Below are positions 26,058 through 43,768 of a stretch of 64,000 bases of DNA, in pieces. Both the position numbers and the translations under genes were made by a program. The notes beneath the pieces are model-generated. The model ran no database searches, was not told the origin of the DNA, and saw nothing but the letters and a program-made list of their open reading frames with translations. The stretch comes from an uncultured Microthrixaceae bacterium. Lineage in GTDB: Bacteria > Actinomycetota > Acidimicrobiia > Acidimicrobiales > DATDAH01. The DNA lies in the NCBI GenBank assembly GCA_964649545.1, contig CAZYPY010000002.1, forward strand, positions 7,050 to 71,049, written 5' to 3'. Position 1 is the stretch's first letter, and every line of letters begins with the position of its first letter.

Positions 26058-26069
26058 AGCGTAGGGGTG

Positions 26070-27539
26070 ATGTCCGGCGGGGGTGACCAGCCGGTAGCCT
26101 CGGCTGCCGTGTCCGCCCGCCCGGGCGTGCCGGGCCGTCGCACCTGGCCCCAGCGCCTCCTGATCACCTTCAACGTCTTCCTCGTCGTCACCTGCCTGGT
26201 GATCGCCGGAGGCCTCGGCTACTTCAACTACAAGTTCGGGCGGCTCCCGCGCGTCTCCATCGAGACCGGGGTGCTGGCCGAGACCGAGGCGCCGAGCGAG
26301 CCCCAGAACTACCTCGTCGTCGGCACGGACGACGCCGCGCGCCTCGACCCGTCGGACCCGGTCACGAACGGCCGGGACGAGCTCGGGGTGCTGTCCGACA
26401 CGATCATGGTGCTGCGCGTCGACCCGGACGAGCAGAAGGCACAGCTGCTGTCGCTGCCCCGCGACCTCTGGGTGCCGATCTCCGGCGGGGGTGAGTCCCG
26501 CATCAACGCCGCGCTGTCGATCGGTGGGCCCGAGGCCCTCATCAACACGATCCAGGACTACCTCGGCATCGAGATCAACCACTACCTCCAGATGGACTTC
26601 TTCGGGTTCAAAGAACTCGTCTCCGCGGTGGACGGCATCCCGATCTACTTCGAGTACCCGGTCCGCGACGAAAAGACCGGGCTGAGCGTCCCCACCGCCG
26701 GCTGCATCACCCTGAGCCCCGAGCAGGCCCTGGCCTACGCCCGGTCGCGCTCGTTCGAGTACCAGGACGAGTCGGGCTGGCACGTCGACGGCACGGGCGA
26801 CCTGGGGCGCATCAGCCGGCAGCAGGACTTCATCCGACGCGCCATCCAACGGGCGGTGGTCAAAGGCATCCGCAACCCGGTGACGCTCAACCAGCTCGTC
26901 AACGTCGGGATCGGCAACGTCACCGTGGACGACACCCTGACCGCCCAGGACATCTTCGGCCTGGGCAAGCGCTTCCGAACCTTCGAGCCCGACGAGCTCG
27001 AGACCCACTCGCTCGACGTCGTCGACGACGTGATCAACGGCGCGCAGGTGCTGCGCCTCGCGGACACGGACGAGAACACCGCCGTCCTCGACATCTTCCG
27101 GGGGGTCGAGGTCGGGGGCGATGACCCCGCCAGCGTCCAGCTCGAGGTGCTCAACGGCTCCGGCACCGCGGGCCAGGCCGGGCTCGTGGCCGACGAGCTC
27201 GGGGGGGTGGGCTTCACCGTCATCGGGACCGGCGACGCGGAACGGTTCGACTTCCCCACCACGGTGGTGCGCTACACCCCGGGGAACGAGGCGGCCGCCG
27301 ACCTGGTCGTGCGTCACCTCGCCGCGGGCGGGCAGGTGGAGGAGGTCGCCGACCTCCCCGCACCCGTGGTGGTCGTGACCGGCCTCGACTACGCCGGCGT
27401 GAACGCCGAGCCCGCCCCCAGCCAGCTCGTCACGACGACCACGACGACCGTCGCCCCGGTCCCGGGGGCCACCACCACCACCACCGAGGTCATCGGCGAG
27501 GTGCCCGGGCCGCCCCCCGCGGGCCAGGCGTGCGGCTGA
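26070..27539 (+). CDS. LytR-CpsA-Psr (LCP) glycopolymer ligase with a LytR_C domain and a poly-Thr tail
   Basis: N-terminal TM helix, then YLVVGTDD...SDTIMVLRVDP...LLSLPRDLWVPI...INAA is the LCP core. LEVLNGSGTAGQAG is the LytR_C domain. C-terminal tail TTTTTTVAPVPGATTTTTE. Confidence 0.88.
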   Translation: MSGGGDQPVASAAVSARPGVPGRRTWPQRLLITFNVFLVVTCLVIAGGLGYFNYKFGRLPRVSIETGVLAETEAPSEPQNYLVVGTDDAARLDPSDPVTNGRDELGVLSDTIMVLRVDPDEQKAQLLSLPRDLWVPISGGGESRINAALSIGGPEALINTIQDYLGIEINHYLQMDFFGFKELVSAVDGIPIYFEYPVRDEKTGLSVPTAGCITLSPEQALAYARSRSFEYQDESGWHVDGTGDLGRISRQQDFIRRAIQRAVVKGIRNPVTLNQLVNVGIGNVTVDDTLTAQDIFGLGKRFRTFEPDELETHSLDVVDDVINGAQVLRLADTDENTAVLDIFRGVEVGGDDPASVQLEVLNGSGTAGQAGLVADELGGVGFTVIGTGDAERFDFPTTVVRYTPGNEAAADLVVRHLAAGGQVEEVADLPAPVVVVTGLDYAGVNAEPAPSQLVTTTTTTVAPVPGATTTTTEVIGEVPGPPPAGQACG

Positions 27540-27645
27540 CCCACCCGGATCGGCGCGCGAGACCCGCCGCCCCCGACCGGTGCCGTGCCGTGCAACGGGC
27601 GGTCGCTCCTGGGGTGCGGCGCGGCCCCCGTGGTACAACCTGGCG

Positions 27646-28926
27646 ATGAGCAAGGTCGCCGTCATCGGGGCGGGCTACGTCGGATTGACGACCGCTGCGT
27701 GCTTCGCCCACCTCGGCCACGAGGTCTTCTGCGCCGACATCGATGCCGAGCGGATCGCGCAACTGCAACGCGGTGAGGTGCCCATCCTCGAGGCCGGGCT
27801 CGAGCAGCTCGTGGCCGAGGGCATCAAGTCCGGTCGCCTGCACTTCGTGCTCGGGGCGGCGCGGGCGGCCGAGCAGGCCGAGTTCTCCTATCTGAGCGTG
27901 CCCACCCCGCAGGGCCACGACGGGCGCGCCGATCTCTCCTACATCGAGGCCGCCGCGCGCGAGATCGGCCCGGTCCTGCCCCCCGAGGCCATCGTGGTCA
28001 ACAAGTCGACGGTCCCGGTGGGGTCGACCCGCGTGGTCGAGCACGCGCTGGGCCGCAGCGACGTGTACGTGGTGTCGAACCCGGAGTTCCTCCGCGAAGG
28101 CTCCGCGGTCTCCGACTTCCTCCACCCCGACCGGGTCGTCATCGGCAGCGAGGACCAGGGCGCGGCCATCCGGGTCGCGTCGCTCTACGTGGGCGTTCCC
28201 GCGCCGCTCATGGTCACCGACCCGGCGTCGGCCGAGACCATCAAGTACGCGAGCAACGCGTTCCTCGCCACCAAGCTCTCCTTCGTCAACGCGGTGGCCG
28301 CGGTGTGCGAGGCGGTCGGCGCCGACGTGAACGACGTCGTGCTCGGGATGGGCTACGACAAGCGCATCGGGCACGACTTCTTGAAGCCCGGACCCGGCTA
28401 CGGCGGCTCGTGCTTCCCCAAGGACACCTCCGCGCTGATCCGCATCGCCGAGGACGGTGGGTACGACTTCCGGCTGCTGAAGGGCGTGGTCGACGTCAAC
28501 GAGGAGCAGTTCGACCGGGTCGTCCGCAAGGTGACCGAGATGGCCGGCGGCTCGCTCCAGGGCGTCACCGTCGCGGCCTGGGGACTCACCTTCAAGGCCC
28601 GCACCGACGACCTCCGGGAGTCGCCGGCACTGCAGATCCTCGGCCGGATCCTCGCCGAGGGCGCCACCGTGCGGGCCTACGACCCGGCGGTCACCGGTTC
28701 GGTGTCGACCCACCCGGCGATCGAGGTCTGCGACGACCCGTACGCACCGTGTGCCGGGGCCCACGTGCTCGTCGTCCTCACCGAGTGGGACGAGTTCCGC
28801 TGGCTCGACCTCGACAAGGTCGCCGAGACCATGGCCGAGCCCGCCGTCATCGATGCCCGGAACCTGCTCGACCGCTCCGCCGTGCAGCGCCGCGGCTTCC
28901 GGTTCGAGGGCATCGGGCGCCGCTGA
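27646..28926 (+). CDS. ugd: UDP-glucose 6-dehydrogenase
   Basis: [27 protein letters not shown] catalytic Cys motif. Confidence 0.92.
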
Positions 28927-28927
28927 C

Positions 28928-29869
28928 GTGGGTCGGGTCGTCGTCACCGGCGGGGCCGGCTTCCTCGGTTCGCACCTGTCCACCCTGCTGGTCGAGCGGG
29001 GCGACGAGGTCGTCGCCGTCGACGACCTGTCGACGGGCTCGCGGGACAACCTCGCCCACCTCGACGGCCACGAGCGCTTCACGTTCGTCGAGCACGACGT
29101 CAGCGCCGGCCTCCCCGTGTCGGGCGCGGTGGACGGCATCGTGCACATGGCGAGCCCCGCTTCGGTGCCGGACTACCTCTCGCGGCCCATCGAGACCCTC
29201 GACGTCGGCAGTCTCGGCACCCGCCACGGCCTCGACCTGGCCCGGGTCACGGGCGCCCGCTTCGTGCTGGCCTCGACCAGCGAGGTCTACGGCGACCCGC
29301 TCGAGCACCCCCAGACCGAGGCCTACTGGGGCAACGTCAACCCGGTCGGGCCGCGCAGCGTCTACGACGAGGCCAAGCGCTTCGCCGAGGCCATGACCAT
29401 GGCCTTCCACCGCACCCACGGGGTCAGCGTCGGGATCGTGCGCACGTTCAACACCTACGGCCCCCACCTGCGCCCTTCCGACGGTCGGGTGGTGTCGAAC
29501 TTCCTCGTGCAGGCCCTGCGGGGCGAGCCCCTCACCGTGTACGGCGACGGCACCCAGACCCGCAGCTTCTGCTACGTCGACGACCAGGTGCGGGGCTACG
29601 CGGCGCTGCTCGACACGCCCGGGGTCACCGGTCCGGTCAACATCGGCAACCCGGTCGAGTTCACCATGCTCGAGCTCGCCGAACTGGTGATCGAGGTCAC
29701 GGGCTCGTCGTCCACGGTCACCCACGAGGACCTGCCGGTCGACGATCCGACGCAACGCCGCCCCGACATCACCCTGGCCGGCGAGCAGCTGGGCTGGAAG
29801 CCCACCATCGAGCTCCGCGACGGCCTCGAGCGCACCGCCGCCTGGCTGCGGGAGCGCCTCGGCCGGTAG
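28928..29869 (+). CDS. uxs: UDP-glucuronate decarboxylase (UDP-xylose synthase)
   Basis: [29 protein letters not shown], and [14 protein letters not shown], which is typical of UXS. The GTG lies 2 nt after the ugd stop. Confidence 0.85.
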
Positions 29870-29990
29870 CCCCTCCTGCGCCGCCCTCCGTTCTGGCGTC
29901 ACGAGCGCCCGCCGAGCGGGCATCGGTGACGCAAGATCGCCGGGAGTGGGGTGCCTCGGCCGCCCGGTCGGGGGGCCGGACCAGGACAGG

Positions 29991-30953
29991 TCAGACGGGG
30001 CGGGCCTCGGCCTCGTCGCGGTGCTCGAGGTACCAGGCGTGGGTCGCGGCGAGGCCGTCGGCGAAGCTGGTGGTGGCCTTGAAGCCGAACGCGGCCTCCG
30101 CCCGCCCGGCATCGACCCGGCGTCGGGGCTGGCCGTCGGGCTTGGAGTGGTCCCAGACGATCTCGCCCTCGAAGCCGGTCACCTCGACGATGGTCTCCAC
30201 GAGCTCGGAGATCGGGGTCTCGTGGTTCGCGCCCAGGTTCACGGGGTCGCCCTCGTCGTAGTGCTCGGCCGCCAGCAGGATGCCTTCCGCAGCGTCGTCC
30301 ACGTAGAGGAACTCGCGGCTGGCCTGACCGGTGCCCCACACCACGATGTGGTCGTCGCCGGCCTCCTTGGCGTCGACGCACTTCTTCATGAGCGCGGGGA
30401 TCACGTGCGAGACGTCGGGGTGGAACTTGTCGCCCGGGCCGTAGAGGTTGGTGGGCATGAGGTAGACGGCGTTCTGGCCGTACTGCGCACGGTTGGCCTG
30501 CGCCTGCATCAGCTGCGCGAGCTTCGCGATGCCGTAGGGCGCATTGGTCTCCTCGGGGAAGCCCTGCCAGAGCGAGTCCTCGGAGAACGGCACCGGCGTG
30601 AACTTGGGGTACGAGCAGATCGTGCCGATCATGACCGTCTTCGGCGTCTCGCGGCGTCGTGCCTCCTCGAGCACGTAGGTGCCCATGAGCAGGTTGTCGA
30701 GGTACAGGTCCGCGGGGCGCTTCTGGTTGGCGCCGATCCCGCCGACCCGCGCCGCCAGGTGGATGACCAGGTCGGGCTCGGTCTCGGCGAACAGCGCCTC
30801 GGTGGCGTCCGGTCGACGCAGGTCGAAGTCGGCGCTGCCGGGCGCCATGACGTGGGCGGCGCTGCGGGCGTCGAGGCCGGCGAGCACGGCTCGGCCGAGG
30901 AAGCCGCGACCACCCGTGACCAGCACGCGTCGATCGGCCCAGAACGCGGTCAC
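29991..30953 (-). CDS. fcl: GDP-L-fucose synthase (GDP-4-keto-6-deoxymannose 3,5-epimerase/4-reductase)
   Basis: VLVTGGRGFLG, PTNLYGPGD, GTGQASREFLYVDD. The GTG at 30953 has GGAG 8 nt upstream. Confidence 0.85.
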   Translation of the reverse strand: MTAFWADRRVLVTGGRGFLGRAVLAGLDARSAAHVMAPGSADFDLRRPDATEALFAETEPDLVIHLAARVGGIGANQKRPADLYLDNLLMGTYVLEEARRRETPKTVMIGTICSYPKFTPVPFSEDSLWQGFPEETNAPYGIAKLAQLMQAQANRAQYGQNAVYLMPTNLYGPGDKFHPDVSHVIPALMKKCVDAKEAGDDHIVVWGTGQASREFLYVDDAAEGILLAAEHYDEGDPVNLGANHETPISELVETIVEVTGFEGEIVWDHSKPDGQPRRRVDAGRAEAAFGFKATTSFADGLAATHAWYLEHRDEAEARPV

Positions 30954-30971
30954 CGGCACGACTCCACAGCC

Positions 30972-32120
30972 ATGGGTCGCAATCGTACCGGGGGGGCTGA
31001 CACACTCCTGCGGGTGGTCGCCGTGCCCCGGGTCGCCGTGACCCTCGAGCAGTGCTGGCACGCCGTGCCCGGCGGGACGGCCACCTCGGCCATCGCCGCC
31101 ACGGCCGCGCTCGACCGACGGGACGACGTGGGGCTCGTGGGCGTCTCTGCCCGCCACTCCGGCCCGCCCCCCGCACCCTTCGTGCCGCCCATCGCCACCC
31201 GGCCGCTGCGGTTGCCTCGGCTCGCGCTGTACGAGTCCTGGCACGTCCTGCGCCGACCACCGGTGGAGGCCGCCACCGGCCCGGTCGACGCGATCTGGGT
31301 CACCGGCGGGGCGGTGCCTCCCCGGTCGGCCCCGATGGTGGTGACCGTCCACGACCTGGCCTTCGTGCACCGTCCCGAGCACTTCACCGCCAAGGGCCGG
31401 CGGTTCTTCCGCCAGGCGACCGAGTGCGCCCGGCGGGATGCCGACCTGGTGCTCTGCCCGTCGCAGGTCACGGCCGACGACTGCGTCGCGCACGGCTTCG
31501 CGGCCGATCGTCTGCGGGTGGTGCCCTGGGGGGTCGGTCAGCACCGGGCCGGCGCCGACGAGATCGCGGAGGTCGCCCTCCGGCACGGCCTCGAGCGGCC
31601 CTACGTCCTCTCGGTGGGGACGGCCGAGCCCCGCAAGAACCTCGGCGCCGTGTTCGGCGCCTTCGCCCGGCTCCGGCGCGAGGACGTCGACCTGGTCGTC
31701 GTCGGGCCGAGCGGTTGGGGGGAGGACCTCCTCGCCCTCGCCGGCGCGGTGCCCCGGGAGCGGGTGCACCTGCTCGGCTTCGTGCCTGCGGCCGACCTGC
31801 CCGGCCTCTACGGCGGCGCCGCCGCGTTCTGCTACCCGAGCCTGCTCGAGGGGTTCGGCCTGCCCGTGCTCGAGGCCATGGCCCAGGCGGCCCCGGTGGT
31901 CACGAGCGCCGGCACCGCGACGGCCGAGGTCGCGGGCGACGCCGCGCTCCTCGTCGAGCCCACCGACCACGACGCGGTGGCCGCCGCGCTGGCCGGCCTC
32001 ATCGACGACCCTGACGCGGCCCGCCGCCTGGGCGACGCCGCCCGCCGGCGCGCCGAGACCTTCACGTGGGACCGCACCGCCGCACTCGTGGCCGAGGCCC
32101 TCCACGAGGTCACCTCATGA
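30972..32120 (+). CDS. Glycosyltransferase family 4 (GT-B, Glycos_transf_1)
   Basis: VGTAEPRKN...CYPSLLEGFGLPVLEAMAQAAPVVTS is the EX7E region. Start is ATG 30972, or GTG 31014/31023. Confidence 0.8.
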   Translation: MGRNRTGGADTLLRVVAVPRVAVTLEQCWHAVPGGTATSAIAATAALDRRDDVGLVGVSARHSGPPPAPFVPPIATRPLRLPRLALYESWHVLRRPPVEAATGPVDAIWVTGGAVPPRSAPMVVTVHDLAFVHRPEHFTAKGRRFFRQATECARRDADLVLCPSQVTADDCVAHGFAADRLRVVPWGVGQHRAGADEIAEVALRHGLERPYVLSVGTAEPRKNLGAVFGAFARLRREDVDLVVVGPSGWGEDLLALAGAVPRERVHLLGFVPAADLPGLYGGAAAFCYPSLLEGFGLPVLEAMAQAAPVVTSAGTATAEVAGDAALLVEPTDHDAVAAALAGLIDDPDAARRLGDAARRRAETFTWDRTAALVAEALHEVTS

Positions 32121-33265
32121 CCGACCGTCGTACCCAGGACGGACCGCCCCGGGTCGCGGTCAACCTGCTGTGGTTGGTGCCCGGCGTCGTGGGCGGGTCG
32201 GAGGAGTACACCATCCGGGCCCTCCTGGGGTTCGCCGAGCAGGACGAGCCCGGCCCGGACATCACCGTGTTCTGCCTGCGGGCCTTCGTCGACGCCCACC
32301 CGGAGGTCGCCGAGGCGTTCCCCACGGTCACGCTGCCCATCACGGGCCGGGAGAAGTCCATGCGCCTCGCGGCCGAGAGCTCCTGGCTCGGCTACCAGTG
32401 CCTGCACCACGACATCGACCTGGTGCACCACGCCGGCGGGATCATGCCCCCGGTCCGCGGGGCCCCGGGGGTGCTCACCATCCACGACCTCCAGCCCTTC
32501 GTCATGCCGGAGCACTTCAGTCCGGTGAAGCGAAACTTCAGTCGGATCGCGATCCCGCGCTCGGTGAAGGCGGCCCGGCTCGTGCTCACCCCGAGCGAGT
32601 ACACCCGCCGTTCCGTGGCCGAGCTGCTGGAGGCCGACCTCGACGACATCCTGGTCGTGCCCCACGGCGTGTCGCCGACCCCCGACCCGGGGACGCCCGA
32701 GGACGAGGTGAGGGCACGCTACGAGTTGGGCGACCGGCCGTTCTTCGTGTTCCCGGCCATCACCTATCCCCACAAGAACCACCTGCTGCTCGTCCGTGCG
32801 TTGCCGGCCGTGCCCGACGCGATCCTCGTGCTGACCGGCGGGGCGGCGCAGACGGAGAAGGCGGTGCTCGCCGAGGCGGAGGCGTTGGGGGTCGCCGGCC
32901 GCGTCCGTCGCCCCGGTCGGGTGCCTCGCGCGGACCTCGACGGCCTCCTGGACGCGGCCACGGCCCTGCTCTTCCCCTCCCGGTTCGAGGGCTTCGGAGC
33001 GCCGGTGCTCGAGGCCATGAGCCGCGGCTGCCCGGTCGTGGCCGCCGACGCGACCGCGCTGCCCGAGGTCGTCGGCGACGCCGGTATCTTGCTTCCGCCC
33101 GACGAGCCCGAGGAGTGGAGCCGGGTCATGCACGAGCTGATCGCCGACCCCGAGCGCCGTCGTGAGCTGGCTGCGGCGGGCCGCGCCCGCGCCGCCCTGT
33201 ACCCCTGGGGTCGATCGGCGGACGCGCTCCGCCGCGCCTACGCCCGGGGCCTGGAGCTGGCGTGA
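32117..33265 (+). CDS. Glycosyltransferase family 4
   Basis: LFPSRFEGFGAPVLEAMSRGCPVVAAD. ATGA overlap with the upstream GT4 gene. Confidence 0.8.
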   Translation: MTDRRTQDGPPRVAVNLLWLVPGVVGGSEEYTIRALLGFAEQDEPGPDITVFCLRAFVDAHPEVAEAFPTVTLPITGREKSMRLAAESSWLGYQCLHHDIDLVHHAGGIMPPVRGAPGVLTIHDLQPFVMPEHFSPVKRNFSRIAIPRSVKAARLVLTPSEYTRRSVAELLEADLDDILVVPHGVSPTPDPGTPEDEVRARYELGDRPFFVFPAITYPHKNHLLLVRALPAVPDAILVLTGGAAQTEKAVLAEAEALGVAGRVRRPGRVPRADLDGLLDAATALLFPSRFEGFGAPVLEAMSRGCPVVAADATALPEVVGDAGILLPPDEPEEWSRVMHELIADPERRRELAAAGRARAALYPWGRSADALRRAYARGLELA

Positions 33266-34494
33266 ACCTGACCATCCTCTGCCCGCACTTCGCCCCGGAC
33301 CTGGCTCCAACGGGCGAGGTCATGTCGAGCATCGCCGAGGGCTGGGTCGCCCAGGGCCATCGCCTGCACGTGGTCACCGCGCTGCCGTGGTACGTCCACC
33401 ACGCCATCGAGCCGGGCTGGGAGGGCCGTCTGGTCCGTCACGAGGACGTGCCGTGGGGGCGGATCACGCGGGTGCACCCGTTCCCGACGGACAAGACGAA
33501 CATCCCGGCCCGTGCCCTGGCCTTCGGCGGGTTCACCGTGCTGTCCGGGATCATGGCCGCGGTCGGCCGGACCCGACCCGACGCGGTCCTGGCCATGTCC
33601 CCACCCCTGACCCTCGGCCTCGCCGGCTGGATGGTGGCCCGGGCCCGGCGGGTGCCGTTCGTGTTCAACATCCAGGACGTCTTCCCCGATGTCGCCATCG
33701 AAGCCGGTGTGCTGAACGGCGAGCGGGCCATCCGGGCGGCGTACCGCATGGAGCGGTTCGCCTACGAGCGCTCGGACGCAGTGACCGTCCTTTCCGACGA
33801 CCTGCGCGACAACGTGATCGCCAAGCTGCCGGCGGCCCAGGCGGCGAAGGTGCACGTGATCCCCAACTTCATCGACACGGGCCGGGTGGCGCCGGGGGAG
33901 CGCGACAACGCCTACCGGCGGGAGTTCGGGCTCGAGGGCAAGACCGTGGTGATGTACGCCGGCAACCTCGGCTTCAGCCAGCCCGTCGAGCTGCTGCTGG
34001 ACGCGGCCGCCGCGCTCCAGGACGAGCCCGACCTGGCCTTCGTGGTCAACGGTGGCGGCTCGGCCCGCGAGGCGTTGGTCGAGCGGGCCAAGGGGCTCGA
34101 CAACGTCACCTTCGTCGGCCTCCAGCCCAAGGACCGCCTGGCCGAGGTCCTCGCCGCCGCGGACGTGCACGTCGTGCTCCTGCGGTCGGGCCTGGCCCGG
34201 GCGAGCGTCCCCTCCAAGCTGTACTCGATCCTCGCCGCGGCTCGGCCCTTGGTCGCATCGGTCGACCCTGGCACCGAGGTGGCCAACACGGTCGAGCGCG
34301 CCGGTGCCGGGCTGTCCGTGCCCCCCGGTGACGCCGAGGCCCTCACCAAGGCATTGCGCCACCTCGTCGAGCACCCGGACGAGGCGAGGGCGATGGGCGA
34401 GTCCGGCCGTCGCTTCGTGGAGGCCTGGCCGTCGCCGGCGGACGTCGCCGAGCGCTACGCCGAGCTGTTCCGCTCATTGATCTCGGCTCGCTGA
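33262..34494 (+). CDS. Glycosyltransferase family 4, WcaI-like
   Basis: NLTILCPHFAPDLAPTGEVM...FVFNIQDVFPD is a WcaI-type N-terminus. GTGA overlap with the upstream gene. Confidence 0.75.
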   Translation: MNLTILCPHFAPDLAPTGEVMSSIAEGWVAQGHRLHVVTALPWYVHHAIEPGWEGRLVRHEDVPWGRITRVHPFPTDKTNIPARALAFGGFTVLSGIMAAVGRTRPDAVLAMSPPLTLGLAGWMVARARRVPFVFNIQDVFPDVAIEAGVLNGERAIRAAYRMERFAYERSDAVTVLSDDLRDNVIAKLPAAQAAKVHVIPNFIDTGRVAPGERDNAYRREFGLEGKTVVMYAGNLGFSQPVELLLDAAAALQDEPDLAFVVNGGGSAREALVERAKGLDNVTFVGLQPKDRLAEVLAAADVHVVLLRSGLARASVPSKLYSILAAARPLVASVDPGTEVANTVERAGAGLSVPPGDAEALTKALRHLVEHPDEARAMGESGRRFVEAWPSPADVAERYAELFRSLISAR

Positions 34495-35341: not shown

Positions 35342-36351
35342 GGGCGGTCGTGCTGGTGGGCGGGTTCGGCACCCGCCTACGTCCGCTCACCGCCCACACC
35401 CCGAAGCAGATGCTGCCGGTGGTCGATCGGCCCATGATCGAGCACGTGGTGGCCCACCTGGCCGAGCACGGTGTCGACGATGCCGTGCTCTCGCTCGGCT
35501 ATCGCCCCGACGCGTTCCTGGAGGCCTACCCCGAGGGTCGCTGCGCCGGCGTGAGCCTGCACTACGCGGTCGAGCCCGAGCCGCTCGACACCGCCGGCGC
35601 CATCCGCTTCGCGGCGCTCGACGCCGGGATCGACGACACGTTCGTGGTCCTGAACGGCGACGTGCTCACGGATTTCGACCTCGGCAAGCTGCTGTCGCGC
35701 CACGCCGAGGCGGGTGCCGAGGGCACCATCCACCTCACCCCGGTGGACGACCCGTCGCGCTACGGCGTCGTCCCGACCGACGAGGACGGCCGGGTCGAGG
35801 CCTTCATCGAGAAGCCACCCCGCGAGAGCGCACCCAGCAACTGGATCAACGCCGGCACCTACGTGCTCGAGCCCTCGGTGATCGGGCGCATCCCCGATGG
35901 TCGCCGGGTCTCGATCGAGCGTGAGACCTTCCCGGCCATGGTCGCCGCCGGTTCGCTCTACGCGGTGGAATCCGACGACTACTGGATCGACGCCGGGACG
36001 CCCGCCGCCTACCTGCGGGCACAGCTCGACCTGATCGACGGCCATCGGGCCGCCGGCCCGGTCGACGGCGTGAGCCCGTCGGCGCTGGTCGACGAGGCGA
36101 CGGTGCGCCACTCGGTGCTCATGGACGGCGTGGTGATCGAGGAGGGCGCGGTCGTGATCGATTCGGTGCTGCTGCCCGGCGCCCGCGTGGAGTCGGGCGG
36201 GGAGGTCACGGGCTCGGTGATCGGGCCCGGAGCGCTCGTCGAGGAGGGTGCGGTCGTCACCAACCTCTCGGTGCTCGGCGAGGGTGCGGTCGTGGAGGCA
36301 GGCGAGCTCCTCGACGGCGAGACGCGCCCGGACGAGGAGGGCGGATCGTGA
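35338..36351 (+). CDS. manC: Mannose-1-phosphate guanylyltransferase-like NDP-sugar pyrophosphorylase with a left-handed beta-helix tail
   Basis: AVVLVGGFGTRLRPLTAHTPKQMLPV. The hexapeptide-repeat C-terminus resembles mycobacterial Rv3264c. Confidence 0.82.
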   Translation: MRAVVLVGGFGTRLRPLTAHTPKQMLPVVDRPMIEHVVAHLAEHGVDDAVLSLGYRPDAFLEAYPEGRCAGVSLHYAVEPEPLDTAGAIRFAALDAGIDDTFVVLNGDVLTDFDLGKLLSRHAEAGAEGTIHLTPVDDPSRYGVVPTDEDGRVEAFIEKPPRESAPSNWINAGTYVLEPSVIGRIPDGRRVSIERETFPAMVAAGSLYAVESDDYWIDAGTPAAYLRAQLDLIDGHRAAGPVDGVSPSALVDEATVRHSVLMDGVVIEEGAVVIDSVLLPGARVESGGEVTGSVIGPGALVEEGAVVTNLSVLGEGAVVEAGELLDGETRPDEEGGS

Positions 36352-37295
36352 GGGCACTGGTCACGGGCGGGGCCGGGTTCATCGGGTCGACCCTGGTCGA
36401 CCGCCTTCTGGCCGAGGGCCACCAGGTCGATGTGGTCGACGACCTGTCGTCCGGCAACCTGGCCAACCTGGCCGACGCCCGGGCCGACCGGGACCACCCC
36501 GTCACCTTCCACCAGATCGACATCCGTGACGAGGCGGTGGTCGAGCTGATGACCCGCCAGCGGCCCGAGGTCGTGTTCCACCTCGCCGCCCAGGCCGACG
36601 TGCGGGTGTCGGTGGCCCGTCCCGCCTACGACGCCCAGATCAACGTGGTGGGGAGCCTCAACGTGCTCGAGGGCGCCCGGGCCGCCGGTGCCCGCAAGGT
36701 CGTGTTCGCCTCCAGCGGCGGCACCATCTACGGCGAGCCCGACCCCTCCGAGCTGCCGGTCAAGGAGTCGCACCCGCAGCAGCCCCTGTCGCCCTACGGC
36801 GTGGCCAAGAAGGTGGTCGGCGACTACCTGTACGCCTACCGGGCCCTCCACGGCCTCGAGTACACGGCCCTGGCCCTCGCCAACGTCTACGGGCCCCGCC
36901 AGGACCCGCACGGCGAGGCGGGCGTGGTCGCCATCTTCACGGGCAGGCTGCTGGCCGGTGAGCCCTGCACGATCTTCGGCACCGGCGAGCAGACCCGCGA
37001 CTTCATCTACGTCGACGACGTGGTCGACGCCTTCGTCCGGGCCGCGGACCGCGGCAGCGGCCTGCTCGCCAACGTGGGCACCGGCCGTGAGGTCTCGGTG
37101 AACGAGCTCTACGACACGATGGCCGCGGCCGCCGGCGTCACCGAGCCCGCCCTGCGGGCCCCGGCCCGCGCCGGCGAGCTCGACCGCTCGGCCCTCGACA
37201 ACGGCCGCGCCGAGCTGCACCTGGGCTGGACGCCCTGGACCACCCTCGAAGAGGGCACCCGGCAGGTCATCGACTGGTTCCGCGCCCGCGCCTGA
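36348..37295 (+). CDS. galE: NAD-dependent sugar epimerase (UDP-glucose 4-epimerase-like)
   Basis: ALVTGGAGFIGSTL, YGVAKK (YxxxK). 4-nt overlap with manC. Confidence 0.7.
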   Translation: MRALVTGGAGFIGSTLVDRLLAEGHQVDVVDDLSSGNLANLADARADRDHPVTFHQIDIRDEAVVELMTRQRPEVVFHLAAQADVRVSVARPAYDAQINVVGSLNVLEGARAAGARKVVFASSGGTIYGEPDPSELPVKESHPQQPLSPYGVAKKVVGDYLYAYRALHGLEYTALALANVYGPRQDPHGEAGVVAIFTGRLLAGEPCTIFGTGEQTRDFIYVDDVVDAFVRAADRGSGLLANVGTGREVSVNELYDTMAAAAGVTEPALRAPARAGELDRSALDNGRAELHLGWTPWTTLEEGTRQVIDWFRARA

Positions 37296-37334: not shown

Positions 37335-38081
37335 TCAGCGGAAGAGGTCCTCGGCGGGGGAGCGGACGACCTCGTCGTGCACCGAGCCGGTGCGGAGCCA
37401 CGACCGGTCGGCGCCGCGGACGACGGCGACGGGGATGCCGTCGGACTTGCCCATGACCAGCTCGGCCGCGGCGGCGAGCTCGTCCACCACCGCCACCTCG
37501 GTGACCTGCATCTCACGGCCGAGGGCGTCGGGCGTGCCCCGGAGATCGAGGATCGCGCCGATGCCGGCGCAGCCGATCGCGACGTCGGTGACGCCGCGCC
37601 GCCACGGCCGGCCGAAGGTGTCGGAGACGATCACCGCGACCTCGACGCCGGCTCGGGCCCGGATGCCGTCGCGGATGCGGCGGGCCGAGCGGTCGCTGTC
37701 CTCGGGCAACAGGGCGGCCTGGCCCCGCTCGACGTTGGAGAGGTCGACGCCGGCGTTGGCGCACACGAACCCGTGCCGGGTCTCGGCGATCACGAGGTCG
37801 CCCCGGCGCCGGAGCACCCGCACCGACTCGTCCTCGACGACCTGCTTGTGGCTCCGGGGGTCGTCGGGGTCGACCTCGACGATGGCCCCTTCGGCCTTGG
37901 ACACGACCTTCTGGGTGACCACGACGACGTCACCGTCGTGCAGCTCGGTGGCGCCGGCGATCATGCCGGCGAGGTCGTCGCCTCGCCGCACCTCCGGCAG
38001 CCCCACCACCCCGAAGACCTCGAGCCGGCTCACGCGGTGCCCCCGATGACGTCGTTCTGGGACCACGCTGGTGTCGCCCAC
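37335..38081 (-). CDS. cofE: Coenzyme F420-0:L-glutamate ligase (stand-alone CofE domain)
   Basis: GDVVVVTQKVVSKAEG...THGFVCANAGVDLSNV...RPWRRGVTDVAIG. Confidence 0.88.
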   Translation of the reverse strand: MGDTSVVPERRHRGHRVSRLEVFGVVGLPEVRRGDDLAGMIAGATELHDGDVVVVTQKVVSKAEGAIVEVDPDDPRSHKQVVEDESVRVLRRRGDLVIAETRHGFVCANAGVDLSNVERGQAALLPEDSDRSARRIRDGIRARAGVEVAVIVSDTFGRPWRRGVTDVAIGCAGIGAILDLRGTPDALGREMQVTEVAVVDELAAAAELVMGKSDGIPVAVVRGADRSWLRTGSVHDEVVRSPAEDLFR

Positions 38082-38145: not shown

Positions 38146-39081
38146 TCATGCGGCGAGGACGGTGCGGCCGAGGGCGGCGGCCTCGTCGGGTCCGGACATG
38201 ATCGTCGGAGCCACGACGCAGTGCATCCCCTCGGCCTCGACCGCGGGCGCCAGGTCGACGTCGGCCTCGTCGATCACGAGGGTGGCGGCCAGGTCGCGGT
38301 AGAGGCGGGCCACGCCGACGACGGACGACTCGTGCCCGAGCTCGCGGAGCAGCCGGTCGGCGGGGCCCTTGAGAGCGGCGCCAGCGATGATCGGCGTCAC
38401 CGCCACCGTGTCGGCCCGGCGGGCCGTGACCGCCTCCCGCACGCCCGGGACGGCCAGCAGCGGGCCGATCGAGACGATGGGGTTCGACGGCGCGATCACG
38501 ACCCGCTCGGCGCCGGCGAGGGCGTCGAGCACGCCGGGGCCCGGGAGGGCGGCGTCGGCGCCGTCGAAGCGCACGGACCGCACGTCGACGTCGTGGCGGC
38601 GCCGCACGAAGTACTCCTGGAAGCCGATCTCGGTGACGTCGCCGTCGCCCTGCTCGTCGATCGTGACCATGGTGCGGAGACGGTCGTCGGTGACGGGCAG
38701 CACCGTCAGCCCGAGCTCCCAGCCCCGGACGATCTCGGCGGTGACCTCGGAGAGCGGCGCCCCTTCGGACAGCCGCTGGGTGCGGTAAAGGTGGGTGCCG
38801 AGGTCGCGGTCACCGAGGTTGAACCAGGTGATGCCGCCGTAGCGGCGCAGGGTGTCCATGGCCTGCCACGTCTCGTCGACGAGGCCCCAGCCGGTCTCGG
38901 GGTTGATGGCGCCGGCGAGCGTGTAGGTGACCGTGTCGAGGTCGGGGCTCACGTGCAGACCGTGCAGCTCCACGTCGTCGGCGGTGTTCACCACCGCGGT
39001 GACGTCCTCGGCGGGGTGCACCGCCAGGATCCCGCGCAGGAGCCGGGCGGCGCCGACCCCGCCGGCGAGGACGGTGATCAC
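38146..39081 (-). CDS. cofD: 2-phospho-L-lactate transferase (CofD/FbiA)
   Basis: [16 protein letters not shown]...VVNTADD...[18 protein letters not shown]. The GTG start overlaps the gmd stop (GTGA). Confidence 0.9.
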
Positions 39082-41087
39082 GGGTGCGACAGGTCGTTCA
39101 GGTCGCCATTGAGCAGGGCGATGTCGGCATCGACCATCATCTCGACGAGCTCCCGGAAGCTGACCCGGGGCTCCCAGTCGAGCTGGCGCTTGGCCTTGCC
39201 GGGGTCACCGACGAGCAGGTCGACCTCGGCGGGGCGCATGAAGCGCTCGTCGATCACCACGTGGTCCTGGTAGTCGAGGCCGGCGTGCGAGAACGCGATC
39301 TCGCAGAACTCGCGCACCGAGTGGGTCTCCCCGGTGGCGACGACGTAGTCGTCGGGCTCGTCCTGCTGGAGCATCGCCCACATGGCCTCGACGTAGTCGC
39401 CGGCGAACCCCCAGTCCCGCTGGGCCTCGAGGTTGCCCAGGTGCAGCTCGGACTGCCGCCCGAGCTTGATCTGCGCCACCCCGTGGCTGATCTTGCGGGT
39501 CACGAACTCGAGCCCGCGGCGGGGGGAATTGTGCACCGTGACGAAGCCCACGCCGGCGGCGAAGCGCCCGGACTCGGTCGCGAGATCGCACATCCAGCCG
39601 CGGTACGGCTGGCGCTCGACCTTGCGGACCTCCTCCTGCGGCTTGCGCAGGTGCGCCCCCTTGTCGCCGACGGTCAGACCCGGGCTCAGGTTGATGAGGT
39701 AGCTGTCGCCGCCGCCGAGGGCCCCGCCCTGCCGGTAGACCGACACCCGGCGCCCGAGGGTCGTCCGGGCGAGCCACACGAGCCCGGCCGCCAAGACCGG
39801 CGACGTCGTGCGGAACGACTTGAAGGGATCGATGCCGTGACCGGCCTTCAGCCCGTCGCCGAGGTTGTAGCCGACGAGGAACGCCTCCTGGAGGTGCGGT
39901 GCAGCGTTGAGGATCCGCTTCGGGACGCGCTTGTGCCCGTCGGCGCAGTACAGCTCGTAGCGGAGGAGGCGGGCGTAGGCGGGGTTGCCCGAGAGGTACA
40001 GCTGCGGCACGTGGCGGTCCGAGAAGGCGGACGGCGAACCCTCCGACTTCCGAGCCTTGCCGGCGGTGACCCGCTCCCAACAGGCCGCGGCCTGGGCGAG
40101 CGTGGCGTCGTCGTTCCCGGTGATCTGCACCGCGCTGCGGTCCTTCGCGACGTGGCCATCGGCGACGAGGAGACCGAGCAGCCACGCCTCGTCCTCGGTG
40201 AGGACGGTGTTCAGGGTGCTCATCGGCTGGGCGGCCATGCGGAGCTGGTCCCCGGCCTCGAACTTCTGGGCTTCCTTCTCGTCGTCGGGGGTGAACACGA
40301 CGTGGTCCGGGGTGGTCTCGACGACCCCGGCGCGGCCGTGCACGGTGATCGAGTCGCCCTCGTACCAGTGGGCCGTGCGCGCGGTGCACCGGACGAAGTC
40401 GGTGCCGTCCCACACCTCGAGCTGTCCGTCGGGCACCGAGACGTAGCCACCGGGCTCGTCGTCCCTCGGGAAGGGGATGAGCGAGCCGATCGAGACGATG
40501 TCGATCAGCCCGTCTCGACGAATAACGACAGGTGATTCAGGAATCAAAGATTCGTGGTTAAACAGCATGCCGGATGACGCGTGGAGGCCGTAGGACTCGC
40601 GGTAGTTGATGGTGATCCAGTGGCCGTAGACCTTGGCCACGCCGTAGGGGCTGCGGGGGTAGAGCGGGGTGGTCTCGCGCTGGGGGACCTCGACCACCTT
40701 GCCGAACATCTCGCTCGAGCTGGCCTGGTAGAAGCGCACGTCGGGGTCGACGATGCGGATGGCGTCGAGCAGGCGGGTGACGCCCAGCGCTGTGGTCTCG
40801 CCGGTCAGCACCGGCTGGCTGAACGAGGTCTGCACGAACGACTGGGCGGCGAGGTTGTACACCTCGTCGGGCCGGTGCTCACGGAGCACCTCGATGAGCG
40901 ACGCCTCGTCGAGCAGGTCACCGGGGGCGAAGGTGATGCGGTCCTGGATGTGCGCGATGCGCTCGTAGTTCACGGTGCTGGTGCGCCGCACCATGCCGAT
41001 GACCTCGTAGTCCTTGGCCAACAGCAGCTCGGCCAGGTAGGAGCCGTCCTGGCCGGTGATGCCGGTGATGAGGGCGCGCTTCTTCAT
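39078..41087 (-). CDS. gmd: GDP-mannose 4,6-dehydratase precursor containing a 341-aa intein
   Basis: N-extein [21 protein letters not shown]...[10 protein letters not shown]...GMLFNHE. C-extein [13 protein letters not shown]...[13 protein letters not shown]. Together they total 328 aa and recreate NHESPRRG. Confidence 0.92.
39528..40550 (-). mobile_element. Class 1 intein with a LAGLIDADG homing-endonuclease domain, inserted in gmd
   Basis: Starts with Ser ([14 protein letters not shown]). Block B is TPDH. Dodecapeptide motifs [11 protein letters not shown] and [12 protein letters not shown]. Ends FVTVHN, followed by the +1 Ser of the C-extein. Coordinates were checked codon by codon. Confidence 0.88.
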
Positions 41088-41126
41088 GGCGCCGTTCTAG
41101 CCTGACGGGGTCCTGTCGTCTGCCAA

Positions 41127-41642
41127 GTGGGTTGGCACGTGGCCCCGCCGCCGCACCGCAACCGTCCCGAGCCGTCGGAGCCCCAGGAGCGCCTCGGCCG
41201 GCGCATCGCCGCCCACCGGGCCAAGCTCGGCTGGACCCAGCAGGAGCTGGCCGAGCGCCTGGCCGTGTCGCGGGTGGCGGTGTCGCACCTCGAGGCGTCG
41301 ATGTCGGTGCCGGGGGAGCGCACCGTGGCGCTGCTCGCCGGTGTGTTCGGGCTCGAGCCCCACGAGCTCGTCGCCGGCACCGACTACCCGGCGGCCAAGG
41401 CCGACCGACTGCCCCTGGTCGTGGCCCGCCACACCGAGCTGGAGCTGCAGCTCGCCCTCCTCGACCAGGAGCTGGGCTGGCTCGAGCACACCGGCGACGA
41501 CCATGCCTTGGAGGTGCTCGACCGCTGGCTCACCCGCCTGCGGGCGCTGCACACGGACGGCCTCGACACCCGTGAGCGCGCCGCGGCCGCCGAGGCGGTC
41601 GAGCGGGTCCGCGTGCTGCGCGACGAGCGCCTGACCGGCTGA
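41127..41642 (+). CDS. XRE-family helix-turn-helix transcriptional regulator
   Basis: LGRRIAAHRAKLGWTQQELAERLAVSRVAVSHLE is an HTH_3 pattern. Helical C-terminal domain. Confidence 0.75.
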   Translation: MGWHVAPPPHRNRPEPSEPQERLGRRIAAHRAKLGWTQQELAERLAVSRVAVSHLEASMSVPGERTVALLAGVFGLEPHELVAGTDYPAAKADRLPLVVARHTELELQLALLDQELGWLEHTGDDHALEVLDRWLTRLRALHTDGLDTRERAAAAEAVERVRVLRDERLTG

Positions 41643-41735
41643 ACGCCTCGCGCGCCGCTCGGGAAGCGGCGGGCCTCGCTCGGTCGTCGCCTCGGTCAGG
41701 CGCCGGTCGCTCCGTCCGGGGACGACCGGTCGGGC

Positions 41736-42650
41736 TCAGCCCGTCGTGGCGGGGGCGACCACGGTGCGCCAGTGGGCGAGCAGGTCGCCCAGGGTCTGGT
41801 GCAGCGGGATCTCGGGCGTCCAGCCCGTCGCGGTGCGCAGACGGGTGTTGTCACCCCGCAGCACCGGGATGTCGACCGGGCGCTGGAGGGCGGGGTCGGC
41901 CTCGAGGCGCATGGGCCGCTCGGCGAGCTGCACCAACTGCTCGGCGAGCTCGGCGACGGCCACGTCGTGGCCCGAGCAGACGTTGTAGACCTCGCCGGGC
42001 TCGCCGTGGAGCACGAGCAGGCGGTACGCCCGCACCACGTCGCGCACGTCGGTGAAGTCGCGCCGAGGGGTGAGGTTCCCGACCGGCACGACGTCGCCGC
42101 CCTCGGCCTCGTTGCGGGCGACCCGGTGGGCCAGGGCGGAGGCGACGAAGCGGTCGGTCTGGCCCGCGCCGAGGTGGTTGAACGCCCGCACCCGGAGCAC
42201 GCCGAGGCCCCGCCCGAGGAAGGCCTGGAGGGCGAGGAAGTCGGCCGAGACCTTGGAGGCGGCGTAGGGGCTCACGGGGCGGAGGGGCGCATCCTCGTCG
42301 AGCGGGAGCTCGGCCTGGGTCACCCGCCCGTACACGTCGGCGCTGCTCACCGCGAGCACGCGTGGTACCTCGACGGCCGCGCAGGCCTCGAGCACGTTGA
42401 GCGTCCCTTCCGCATTGGCCCGGAAGGTCTCGACCGGCGCCGACCAACTGCCGCCCACGTCGGCCTGCCCCGCCAGGTGGTAGACCGCCTCGGGGCGGAC
42501 TCGCTCGAGCAGGTCGTGCCAGGCGGTCGAGTCGAGCAGGTCGGGCCCGTCGTGGCGGTCGACACCCACGACCTCGTCGCCCTCGGCCTCGAGGTGCTCG
42601 CTCAGGTAGTGGCCCACGAAGCCGTGCGCGCCGGTGATGAGGGCCTTCAC
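41736..42650 (-). CDS. rmd: NAD-dependent SDR, GDP-4-keto-6-deoxy-D-mannose reductase (Rmd)-like
   Basis: KALITGAHGFVGHYL, SSADVYG, YAASKV. GTGA overlap with the upstream GT4 gene. The specific substrate is inferred from family resemblance and the nearby gmd. Confidence 0.65.
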   Translation of the reverse strand: MKALITGAHGFVGHYLSEHLEAEGDEVVGVDRHDGPDLLDSTAWHDLLERVRPEAVYHLAGQADVGGSWSAPVETFRANAEGTLNVLEACAAVEVPRVLAVSSADVYGRVTQAELPLDEDAPLRPVSPYAASKVSADFLALQAFLGRGLGVLRVRAFNHLGAGQTDRFVASALAHRVARNEAEGGDVVPVGNLTPRRDFTDVRDVVRAYRLLVLHGEPGEVYNVCSGHDVAVAELAEQLVQLAERPMRLEADPALQRPVDIPVLRGDNTRLRTATGWTPEIPLHQTLGDLLAHWRTVVAPATTG

Positions 42651-43768
42651 CGCGCCGAGTGTACGACTCGCCGGTAGAGGCCGATGAGCCGGTCGGTCGC
42701 GACGTCCCAGGAGAACCCCGCGGCCCGCTCGCGGCCGGCGGCGGCGAGGGCCTCGCGAGCAGCCTCGTCGCCGAGCAGCGCGGCGACGGCACCGGCCAGG
42801 GTCTCGGGGTCGCCCGGCGGGACGAGCCGCGCGGCCGCACCGAGCACCTCGGGCAGCGATCCCGCGGTCGAGGCGACGACCGGGACCCCGGCGCTCATGG
42901 CCTCGAGGGGCGGGAACCCGAACCCCTCGTAGACCGACGGGTAGGCGAACACGGTGGCGCCGTGCACGAGCGCGTCGCGGTCGGGGTCGTCGACCCACGC
43001 GAGGCGCACGATGCGGTCGCGGTGGCGGGCGGCGGCCACGGCGGCGGCGAAGGCGTCGACCCCCCAACCGTCCGGGCCGGCGACGACGAGGTGAACGTTC
43101 GGGTCGTCGTCGGCCACGAGGTCGAAGGCGGCCACGAGGGTGGGGAAGTCCTTGCGCGGTTCGATGGTCCCGAGGGCGAGGAGGTAGCGGTCGGCGCCGG
43201 CCAGGGCGCGGCCTCGAGCCGGGTCGGCGGGGGTGAGCGGCGTCAACCCGTCGTGGATAGCCACCACGCGCTCGGGGTCGACCTGGAAGTGGTCGCGGAT
43301 CTCGTCGGCGACGAAGTGCGACCCGGTGTGCACCCACGCCCCGCGGTCGATCGCCGCCTGGATGAGCGGGGGGAAGGCGAGCGTGTCGCGGGTGCACAGC
43401 TCGGGGAAGCGCACGGGTGTGAGGTCGTGGACGGACACGACCGCGGCGCCCCGGGTGGGCGGGACCACGTAGTTCGGGCCGTGGACGAGGTCGATGGGGC
43501 CGGTCCACCACTCGATCGGCGGGCCAGCGAAGCGTGACCACGCCTCGCGCAGGGGGCGAGCGGCCATGGGTCGACCCATCGCCGTGACGCCGGCCGGGAC
43601 CAGTCCGGCCAGGCGGCCCCGGCCTCGCCACGTCGCGGCGTACGCCCGCACGTCCAGGTCGGGGTGGGCGCCGAGCCGGGCGAGCACCTCGTAGGCGTAG
43701 ACGCCGACACCGGTCCGTGGGCCGAACAGCGGGGTGGCGTCGTAGGCGACGCGCAGTGCCGGAGGCAT
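42647..43768 (-). CDS. Glycosyltransferase family 4
   Basis: LRVAYDATPL...GTIEPRKD...AYPSVYEGFGFPPLEAMSAGVPVVAS. Confidence 0.8.
   Translation of the reverse strand: MPPALRVAYDATPLFGPRTGVGVYAYEVLARLGAHPDLDVRAYAATWRGRGRLAGLVPAGVTAMGRPMAARPLREAWSRFAGPPIEWWTGPIDLVHGPNYVVPPTRGAAVVSVHDLTPVRFPELCTRDTLAFPPLIQAAIDRGAWVHTGSHFVADEIRDHFQVDPERVVAIHDGLTPLTPADPARGRALAGADRYLLALGTIEPRKDFPTLVAAFDLVADDDPNVHLVVAGPDGWGVDAFAAAVAAARHRDRIVRLAWVDDPDRDALVHGATVFAYPSVYEGFGFPPLEAMSAGVPVVASTAGSLPEVLGAAARLVPPGDPETLAGAVAALLGDEAAREALAAAGRERAAGFSWDVATDRLIGLYRRVVHSAR

Follow-up and report, generated by a model that had tools for sequence, protein, structure and literature searches.

By gene content, the closest characterised system to the locus described here is the common polysaccharide antigen (CPA) cluster of Pseudomonas aeruginosa, which encodes a D-rhamnan and has the order rmd–gmd–wbpW–wzm–wzt–wbpXYZ (PMC3560663). 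In mycobacteria, the LytR-CpsA-Psr (LCP) enzyme Lcp1 (Rv3267), encoded near the gene of the linker builder wbbL (Rv3265c), ligates arabinogalactan to peptidoglycan (PMC7502851). Here we analysed a stretch of 64,000 nucleotides from an uncultured Microthrixaceae bacterium of the Acidimicrobiales (contig CAZYPY010000002.1, positions 7,050 to 71,049; hereafter the window), in which an LCP gene, sugar-nucleotide genes and glycosyltransferase (GT) genes are found at 26070–43768. Acidimicrobiia occur abundantly in soils, fresh waters, the sea and wastewater; to our knowledge, hardly any have been cultured, and next to nothing has been described of the chemistry of their envelope. Our analysis suggests, with a probability of roughly 0.5, that these genes are the Acidimicrobiales version of a conserved modular actinobacterial envelope locus, providing the sugars and GTs for an LCP-attached secondary wall polysaccharide. 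The kind is already known, i.e. an LCP-associated secondary wall polysaccharide locus, here in a poorly studied order.

The window and the CPA cluster both contain gmd, rmd, a manC-type gene, several GT4 genes, and Wzm/Wzt with a C-terminal binding domain on Wzt. The likeness extends to the proteins themselves, as the best Protein Data Bank (PDB) match of Gmd is the P. aeruginosa enzyme 1rpn (438 bits), and the second best match of the Rmd-like protein is P. aeruginosa 6x3b (202 bits). The differences are that the host here is actinobacterial and that ligation to peptidoglycan by the LCP enzyme is predicted, whereas the P. aeruginosa polymer is placed on lipid A–core by WaaL. Furthermore, accA, birA and pabBC stand between the cluster and wzm/wzt, which are encoded some 10 kb upstream and are not co-inherited with it (absent at that position in 43/43 metagenomic loci and present only in the close relative L167), the window has extra ugd/uxs/fcl/galE modules, and orthology of the GT4 proteins to WbpX/Y/Z could not be shown.

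The surrounding gene order resembles that of a different bacterium. The neighbourhood in Mycobacterium tuberculosis is Lcp1 (Rv3267), rmlD, wbbL1 (Rv3265c), manC (Rv3264c), fbiB/fbiA, and further on pmmA and manA. Both have an LCP ligase beside wall-polysaccharide genes, followed by manC and cofE/cofD (fbiB/fbiA), and the likeness continues further on in the window with DUF3499, manB, the SIS isomerase, sahH, hpf and secA. The backbone LCP...manC...cofE/cofD...DUF3499, manB, SIS isomerase, sahH, comF-like, hpf, secA, with birA and accA on its other side, matches Rv3240c–Rv3267/Rv3285, and its part from LCP to manB matches Rv3257c–Rv3267. By this comparison, the interspersed housekeeping genes would belong to a phylum-level backbone shared with M. 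tuberculosis, and cofDE, accA and birA are an inherited backbone and not a sign of decay. The sequence-only reading of this DNA had seen the system as fragmented by these genes; their presence does not show this, as the gene order gmd–cofD–cofE is conserved in relatives and gmd overlaps cofD by 4 nt. In contrast to M. tuberculosis, the window has neither the dTDP-L-rhamnose genes (wbbL, rmlD) nor machinery for galactofuranose or arabinose; what stands between LCP and manC instead is ugd–uxs–(fcl) and three GT4 genes, and gmd/rmd flank cofDE. The Escherichia coli colanic acid cluster (gmd, fcl/wcaG, wcaI, manC/cpsB, manB/cpsG, ugd) is similar in its GDP-fucose branch, its source of UDP-glucuronate (UDP-GlcA) and its WcaI-family GT4. 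However, Wzx/Wzy/Wza/Wzc are not present here, the WcaI equivalog model reaches only 124 bits against a cut-off of 800, and the present locus is conserved at the level of the order, whereas colanic acid is made by a stress-induced capsule operon.

The GC content of the window is 72% overall and 71–75% (0.71–0.75) throughout, even across the region, and because it is so high the raw open reading frame (ORF) lists are full of overlapping spurious frames. Genes were selected by the GC content of third codon positions (GC3) and then tested against Pfam, NCBIfam and PDB sequences. Homology confirmed the genes that had been named from the sequence alone (LCP, Ugd, Uxs, ManC, GalE-like, Fcl, four GT4, Rmd-like, cofDE, pabBC and accA/birA), and also the downstream manB and the phosphomannose/phosphoglucose isomerase (PMI/PGI). 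The LCP glycopolymer transferase (26070–27539, + strand) matches PF03816 with 118.5 bits against 24.6 and TIGR00350 with 105.7 bits against a cut-off of 62.3. A single hydrophobic segment, an N-terminal transmembrane (TM) helix by hydropathy that provides the membrane anchor expected of the family, precedes the LCP domain, and LytR_C (PF13399, 50.9 bits) and a Thr/Pro-rich tail follow it. The LCP ORF opens at 25623; the ATG at 26070 is a plausible start and fits the divergent pabB (25026–26060, −), beyond which lies pabC (24140–24982, −).

Ugd, a UDP-glucose 6-dehydrogenase forming UDP-GlcA (27646–28926, +), scores 432 bits against 190 with TIGR03026 and 443 bits with the TuaD model; it has all three UDPG_MGDP_dh domains, and its L167 homologue is 427 aa long. 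Uxs, a UDP-glucuronate decarboxylase forming UDP-xylose (28928–29869, +), matches human UXS1 (4gll, 2b69) over its full length at 339 bits, with the next-best family at only 136 bits, and its GTG start is 1 nt past the ugd stop. The GDP-L-fucose synthase Fcl (29991–30959, −; start near 30955 by frame analysis) covers positions 2–307 of the 308 of NF047922 at 300 bits, which is below the cut-off of 500 but by far the best match. The 704-aa ORF at 29991–32105(−) was rejected as Fcl, its upstream part being an artefactual extension; Fcl corresponds to residues 391–698 only, and upstream of ~30960 the frame plot shows that the opposite strand codes for GT4 no. 1 (30972–32120, +). This GT4, hidden within the opposite-strand ORF and recognised by frame plot and translation, matches the MSMEG_0565 family (112 bits) and MshA (7qsg, 90 bits), and its orthologue in the related locus L169 is 382 aa long. 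GT4 no. 2 starts at 32066 or 32117 and ends at 33265 (+; PF00534 95 bits, PF13439), and GT4 no. 3 (33262–34494, +) is WcaI-family-like (NF007640 247 bits against a cut-off of 276; PF13579, PF00534).

ManC, the mannose-1-phosphate guanylyltransferase forming GDP-mannose (35338–36351, +), matches PF00483 with 181 bits and NF052502, the Rv3264c-type model, with 302 bits. The following GalE-like UDP-hexose (or UDP-pentose) 4-epimerase (36348–37295, +) matches 7ys8 (316 bits) and 4zrm (284 bits), both UDP-glucose 4-epimerases. On the other strand lie the housekeeping F420 gamma-glutamyl ligase CofE (37335–38081, −; PF01996 208 bits), the 2-phospho-L-lactate transferase CofD (38146–39081, −; PF01933 166 bits) and gmd (39078–41087, −). 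An XRE-family helix-turn-helix regulator (41127–41642, +; PF13560, PF01381) is divergent from gmd with a 40-bp gap, and this xre gene alone splits gmd from rmd, which is near or adjoining gmd in relatives. The Rmd-like GDP-4-keto-6-deoxy-D-mannose reductase (41736–42650, −; GDP-D-rhamnose or GDP-6-deoxy-D-talose) matches 2pk3 with 215 bits and 6x3b with 202 bits, compared to 131 bits for the next-best match. The 764-aa ORF at 41736–44030(−) was discarded as an artefact in which this short-chain dehydrogenase/reductase is joined to an out-of-frame reading across GT4 no. 4 (42647–43768, −; PF00534 98.5 bits and GT4-family matches), the stop of which overlaps the rmd start by 4 nt. Further downstream are ManB, a phosphomannomutase (56843–58237, +; PGM_PMM domains I–IV), and the SIS/bacterial-PGI-type isomerase (58482–59525, +; PF10432 149 bits).

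The tight junctions, i.e. the 1-nt gap of ugd/uxs and the 4-nt overlaps of GT4-2/GT4-3, unk260/manC (unk260 being a conserved gene discussed below), manC/galE, gmd/cofD and GT4-4/rmd, define sub-operons, and since the gmd stop overlaps the cofD start (39078–39081), gmd–cofD–cofE look like one transcript. A promoter and terminator scan performed no better than on shuffled sequence. As each of the sugar-nucleotide enzymes named was found, with the claimed family as its best match, the donor pool is sound as a prediction; the predicted donors are UDP-GlcA, UDP-xylose, GDP-mannose, GDP-L-fucose, GDP-D-rhamnose or GDP-6-deoxy-D-talose, and UDP-galactose (or UDP-L-arabinose).

All window proteins were mapped onto 80 genomic loci (manC ± 10 kb), 54 of which have full flanks (complete loci) and were used for the per-gene counts. 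The closest ManC homologues are found in Acidimicrobiales/Microthrixaceae metagenome-assembled genomes (82–91% identity), followed by those in Iamiaceae, Rhabdothermincola, Candidatus Microthrix and Acidimicrobiaceae. A recurrent order, LCP–ugd–uxs–(fcl)–GT4–GT4–GT4–unk260–manC–galE–cofE–cofD–gmd–(xre)–rmd–(GT4)–GT2(1058 aa)–DUF5719, is seen in loci labelled Microthrixaceae, Iamiaceae, Rhabdothermincola and Ca. Microthrix, down to ~60% ManC identity. Its recurrence across families at this depth therefore points to an order-level core envelope locus rather than a strain-specific island. Among the complete loci, manC is found in 54, cofE in 52, unk260 in 51, ugd in 46, uxs and rmd in 45 each, galE in 43 and GT4-4 in 41, followed by gmd (20), LCP (19), the 1058-aa GT2 (18), xre (9) and fcl (6). 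The five genes ugd, uxs, manC, gmd and rmd occur together within 10 kb of manC in 14/54 complete loci, with ManC identities of 60–82%; the LCP gene accompanies them in 12 of these 14, and each of the 14 includes two or more GT4 genes. In the window the LCP gene is directly upstream of ugd–uxs, and the same adjacency is found wherever LCP is present in relatives, while uxs is paired with ugd in 45/46 loci. The co-inheritance of the sub-clusters in 26070–43768, on which the sequence-only reading had staked itself, is thus borne out, as they are co-located across several Acidimicrobiales families. Scans of the window for tRNA genes and Rfam families were both empty, and these absences and the even GC content fit an order-level core feature; a mobile island was rejected on the same grounds and on the order-level synteny. 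Gene identities, synteny and modular distribution are in this way established at the level of sequence.

In our proposed mechanism, fructose-6-phosphate would be converted to mannose-6-phosphate by the SIS-type PGI/PMI, to mannose-1-phosphate by ManB and to GDP-mannose by ManC. Gmd, which would be active only once its intein (see below) is spliced out, would then form GDP-4-keto-6-deoxy-mannose, from which the Rmd-like reductase would make GDP-D-rhamnose (or GDP-6-deoxy-D-talose) and, in this lineage, Fcl would make GDP-L-fucose. Ugd and Uxs would provide UDP-GlcA and UDP-xylose, and the GalE-like enzyme UDP-galactose (or UDP-L-arabinose). The four cytoplasmic GT4 enzymes would build the chain on a polyprenyl-phosphate primer, the Wzm/Wzt ABC transporter encoded ~10 kb upstream is the likely exporter in this lineage, and the LCP enzyme would move the polymer onto peptidoglycan. 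The core would consist of deoxyhexose, mannose and galactose, with xylose and glucuronate in most lineages, while fucose and sulfate may either decorate it in certain lineages or be part of another polymer. It is reasonable to infer a polymer of deoxyhexose, mannose and galactose linked to the wall, in which xylose and glucuronate may or may not occur; what the GT4 enzymes act on, how the chain is exported, where the LCP enzyme places it and the polymer as such are all deduced from the genes.

The one available chemical comparison agrees with part of this scheme. In a cultured Iamiaceae isolate, rhamnose, ribose, mannose and galactose are reported as the whole-cell sugars (PMC12263773), which fits a Gmd/Rmd, ManC and GalE core. 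A literature search on Acidimicrobiia wall sugars found none beyond this isolate. Several points count against an LCP-attached wall polysaccharide as the product. The isolate profile is without xylose or fucose (PMC12263773), and its rhamnose could be L-rhamnose from a dTDP pathway elsewhere in its genome. For this organism, the polymer is a prediction from genes. Donor and acceptor specificities of the GT4 enzymes are unreadable from the sequence, as PDB sequence searches with two of the four gave only weak, generic matches (MshA, PimA, GlgM) and no donor-specificity information. The window revealed no gene for a priming phosphoglycosyl transferase. For export of the core, wzm/wzt are apart from the cluster and missing at that position in most relatives. 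Finally, neighbourhood alone is no proof of shared function, because the conserved synteny also takes in cofDE, accA and birA.

This last point leads to the alternative that survives best, which we consider possible though clearly less probable: that there is no single polymer, and that the locus is an ancient neighbourhood whose modules feed several unrelated glycoconjugates. GDP-mannose could then go to protein O-mannosylation or lipoglycans via the downstream polyprenyl-phosphate-sugar synthase and a large membrane protein, gmd/rmd and GT4 could make a D-rhamnan-type chain, ugd/uxs a separate xylose/glucuronate glycan, and the GT2 and sulfotransferase genes a separate sulfated glycan exported by Wzm/Wzt. 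The distributions of the modules indeed differ: gmd/rmd occur without uxs in six loci, including Ca. Microthrix, many Acidimicrobiaceae-type loci have ugd–uxs with no gmd within 10 kb, and fcl, which is always accompanied by gmd, is confined to 6/54 complete loci. In addition, two GT2 genes of its own go with the sulfotransferase block, which lies beside wzm/wzt, a GtrA+GT2 gene (55591–56784) adjoins an 884-aa multi-TM protein and manB, and unrelated housekeeping genes stand within the same conserved order. On the other hand, the run LCP–ugd–uxs–GT4×3–unk260–manC–galE is unbroken, translationally coupled and kept as a unit in many loci, and the LCP gene adjoins in 12/14 loci with all five sugar-nucleotide genes. 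The same distributions bear on the sequence-only reading of an LCP-linked polymer of fucose, 6-deoxyhexose, xylose and glucuronate: the LCP gene is adjacent to ugd–uxs and kept there in relatives, as that reading would have it, but a single obligatory polymer of this composition is not implied, because ugd–uxs and gmd–rmd each occur without the other. Fucose, which it had counted among the constituents, is not a core feature, as only 6/54 complete loci have fcl.

Other parts that vary between lineages lie upstream of the cluster. An export/decoration block of mixed strand at 12406–24129, with accA and birA embedded in it, holds wzm (13388–14239), wzt (14328–15668, with a Wzt_C domain), two GT2 genes (16783–17643 and 18919–19836(−)) and five sulfotransferase-like genes (12406–13299(+), 15709–16779(+), 17916–18914(−), 19841–20527(−) and 23398–24129(−)). 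The sulfotransferase-like genes starting at 12406 and 15709 and the GT2 gene at 18919–19836(−) are easily overlooked in raw ORF lists. The C-terminal carbohydrate-binding domain of Wzt is PF14524, and the protein resembles TagH and the galactan exporter Wzt. None of the proteins of the wzm/wzt/sulfotransferase block has a match in any of the 80 genomic loci. We also carried out an AccA-centred metagenome scan, which covers 43 loci of at least 9 kb from relatives with up to 79% identity and so tests the block at family/order depth. The run accA–birA–(pabC)–(LCP)–ugd–uxs is common in these loci and mutB is usually on the other side of accA, and a sulfotransferase stands beside accA in 0/43. The only colinear case is L167, a 394-kb contig of a close relative with a sulfotransferase 78% identical to that of the window, the block in the same order and proteins 63–88% identical. 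Its order is fcl–uxs–ugd–LCP–pabB–pabC–ST–birA–accA–ST–GT2–ST–GT2–ST-like–wzt–wzm–RDD–lpd (ST, sulfotransferase); the sulfotransferase gene at 23398 is between birA and pabC there too, and the one at 12406 is the only gene missing. Members of the sulfotransferase family with ~50% identity are found in Polyangiaceae, Nitrosococcus, Competibacteraceae and others. From this distribution and the cross-phylum homologues, sulfation and the ABC exporter at this position look like clade-specific additions to an older core; co-occurrence of the sugar cluster with the wzm/wzt/sulfotransferase block, which the sequence-only reading had named as a check, was seen in L167 and in none of the 80 genomic or 43 metagenomic loci.

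These data also bear on the idea of one sulfated heteropolysaccharide of fucose, 6-deoxyhexose, xylose and glucuronate, made by the sugar cluster and the wzm/wzt/sulfotransferase block together, fucoidan- or ulvan-like and LCP-anchored, which we consider unlikely. All the required donors are encoded, the five sulfotransferase-like genes and wzm/wzt are within 14 kb of the LCP gene, and the whole arrangement is colinear in L167. However, the block is absent beside accA in all 43 more distant loci and unmatched in the 80 genomic ones, its sulfotransferases have ~50% identical homologues in unrelated phyla, and fcl is rare in relatives. There is also no gene for synthesis of 3′-phosphoadenosine 5′-phosphosulfate (PAPS) within the window and no evidence tying any of the sulfotransferases to these sugars, and the algal likeness is one of composition alone; the sulfated fucoidan/ulvan-like reading is speculation. 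A bolder form of it, in which the peptidoglycan carries a sulfated D-rhamnose/xylose/glucuronate/fucose coat as an LCP-anchored analogue of algal ulvan/fucoidan, the Wzt domain recognises the sulfated end and Gmd splicing gates both deoxyhexoses, would be a long shot. Least probable of all is a secreted, colanic-acid-like exopolysaccharide or capsule not linked to peptidoglycan, with the LCP adjacency due to conserved synteny alone: gmd, fcl, manC, manB, ugd and the WcaI-family GT4 (NF007640 247 bits) parallel the colanic-acid set and LCP is missing within 10 kb in many ugd–uxs relatives (32 loci with uxs but without LCP), but Wzx/Wzy, Wza and Wzc genes were not found in the window, conservation at order level is unusual for capsule loci, which are normally strain-variable, and LCP stands directly before ugd–uxs wherever it is present.

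The most distinctive single feature of the interval is within gmd. The GDP-mannose 4,6-dehydratase precursor (39078–41087, −) is 669 aa long and matches TIGR01472 with 442 bits against a cut-off of 415, in two stretches. The sequence-only reading implied two gmd genes; Gmd is indeed present, but tblastn of the window found one Gmd only, in two halves, and the reading had overlooked an intein. A second gmd or a gmd–rmd fusion was accordingly ruled out for the 669-aa ORF, in which a single Gmd is split by an intein of 341 aa that carries a LAGLIDADG homing-endonuclease domain and was read from the sequence at 39528–40550(−), and this single gmd would feed both Fcl and Rmd. The junctions read GMLFNHE, then SLIP...GFVTVHN, then SPRRGLEF, so that the insertion point, FNHE/SPRRG, is in a highly conserved host motif. 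The insert has the marks of a class 1 intein, with Ser at position 1, a TxxH block B (ETTPDH), a C-terminal His-Asn and Ser at +1, and it contains two LAGLIDADG motifs, one of them LLGLLVADG. With the insert removed, the 328-aa Gmd aligns with P. aeruginosa GMD 1rpn, its best PDB match, at 438 bits and is gap-free at the junction. Since the profile matches are individually sub-threshold (Hom_end 20.1 against 21.1, LAGLIDADG_3 17.7 against 22.5, Intein_splicing 15 against 35.8), the intein call is based on the residues at the junctions, on the motifs, on the colinearity and on where the insert is present or absent. The best PDB matches of the intein, to the PI-PkoII and VMA inteins, are likewise weak (E = 0.06–0.4). 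Taken together, the insert is a class 1 LAGLIDADG intein as judged from its sequence, and splicing is predicted.

Among related loci the intein is present in L003, L004 and L014, whereas L002, with a 95% identical Gmd, and ~25 other orthologues lack it. In contrast to this sporadic pattern close by, 119 of the best 120 full-length Gmd homologues listed have an insert at the same site, with S or C first, HN last and S at +1, and a length of 290–376 aa; they come from Acidimicrobiales, Iamia, Chloroflexota-type taxa and Cryptosporangiaceae and are annotated merely as 'GDP-mannose 4,6-dehydratase'. An exhaustive search with the intein found relatives in 540 clusters (50% identity) at E ≤ 1e-3, many with hosts of ~670 aa and the insert at residues 180–205, and others in hosts of unrelated length. 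The known class 1 LAGLIDADG inteins PI-PkoII and VMA1 have the same Ser1, TxxH, two LAGLIDADG motifs, His-Asn, +1 Ser and sporadic distribution; the difference is the host protein, which here is Gmd. Our literature search, in a collection that is incomplete, found no paper describing a Gmd intein, so as far as searched it is common in sequence databases yet undescribed. It clearly places an intein in the enzyme at which two deoxyhexose pathways diverge.

Several neighbouring genes are conserved with the cluster. The most faithful neighbour of manC is unk260, which adjoins it in 74/80 loci and encodes a conserved membrane-anchored protein of 260 aa (34559–35341, +) with no Pfam or NCBIfam match. 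The N-terminus is basic, there is a single TM helix, and the invariant residues of its extracytoplasmic domain, H66, H68, C76, H94, H96, H102, H104 and C147, form a His/Cys cluster that looks like a putative metal site. Its homologues number more than 1500 and are without exception named hypothetical, and a confident AlphaFold2 model (mean predicted local distance difference test score 78.6) gave no fold match in the PDB. At 44112–48934(+), the 1058-aa GT2 protein, with an N-terminal GT2 domain (PF00535) and ~11 TM helices by hydropathy in its C-terminal region, is followed by a DUF5719 protein (PF18986), for which no literature was found. Relatives keep the two together downstream of rmd/GT4, the GT2 being found in 18/54 complete loci and the pair in L169. 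Between the DUF5719 gene and the DUF3499/Rce1-like genes lies an FtsH-like AAA+/M41 protease (49440–51419, −), 94% identical in L169.

The stretch 52940–56784(+) holds a protein of 884 aa, rich in TM helices and with a large C-terminal domain, which has no match in Pfam and is GT-C-like in topology only; directly after it come a GtrA+GT2 polyprenyl-phosphate-sugar-synthase-like gene (55591–56784) and then manB. From their arrangement, these genes may form a branch of extracytoplasmic glycosylation that draws on GDP-mannose. At the other end of the window are two sulfatase-fold proteins (8–1042(+) and 1045–3342(+)), the second of which has four N-terminal TM helices, i.e. the architecture of an LtaS/EptA-type phosphotransferase and not of a soluble sulfatase.

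In summary, current understanding of LCP-associated wall polysaccharide systems is unchanged by these findings. For the Acidimicrobiia, the parts of the locus that vary between lineages, i.e. fucose, sulfation and the ABC exporter, have now been identified, and the locus leads to a concrete prediction for their main wall glycopolymer, which would contain 6-deoxyhexose, mannose and galactose, with or without xylose and glucuronate.

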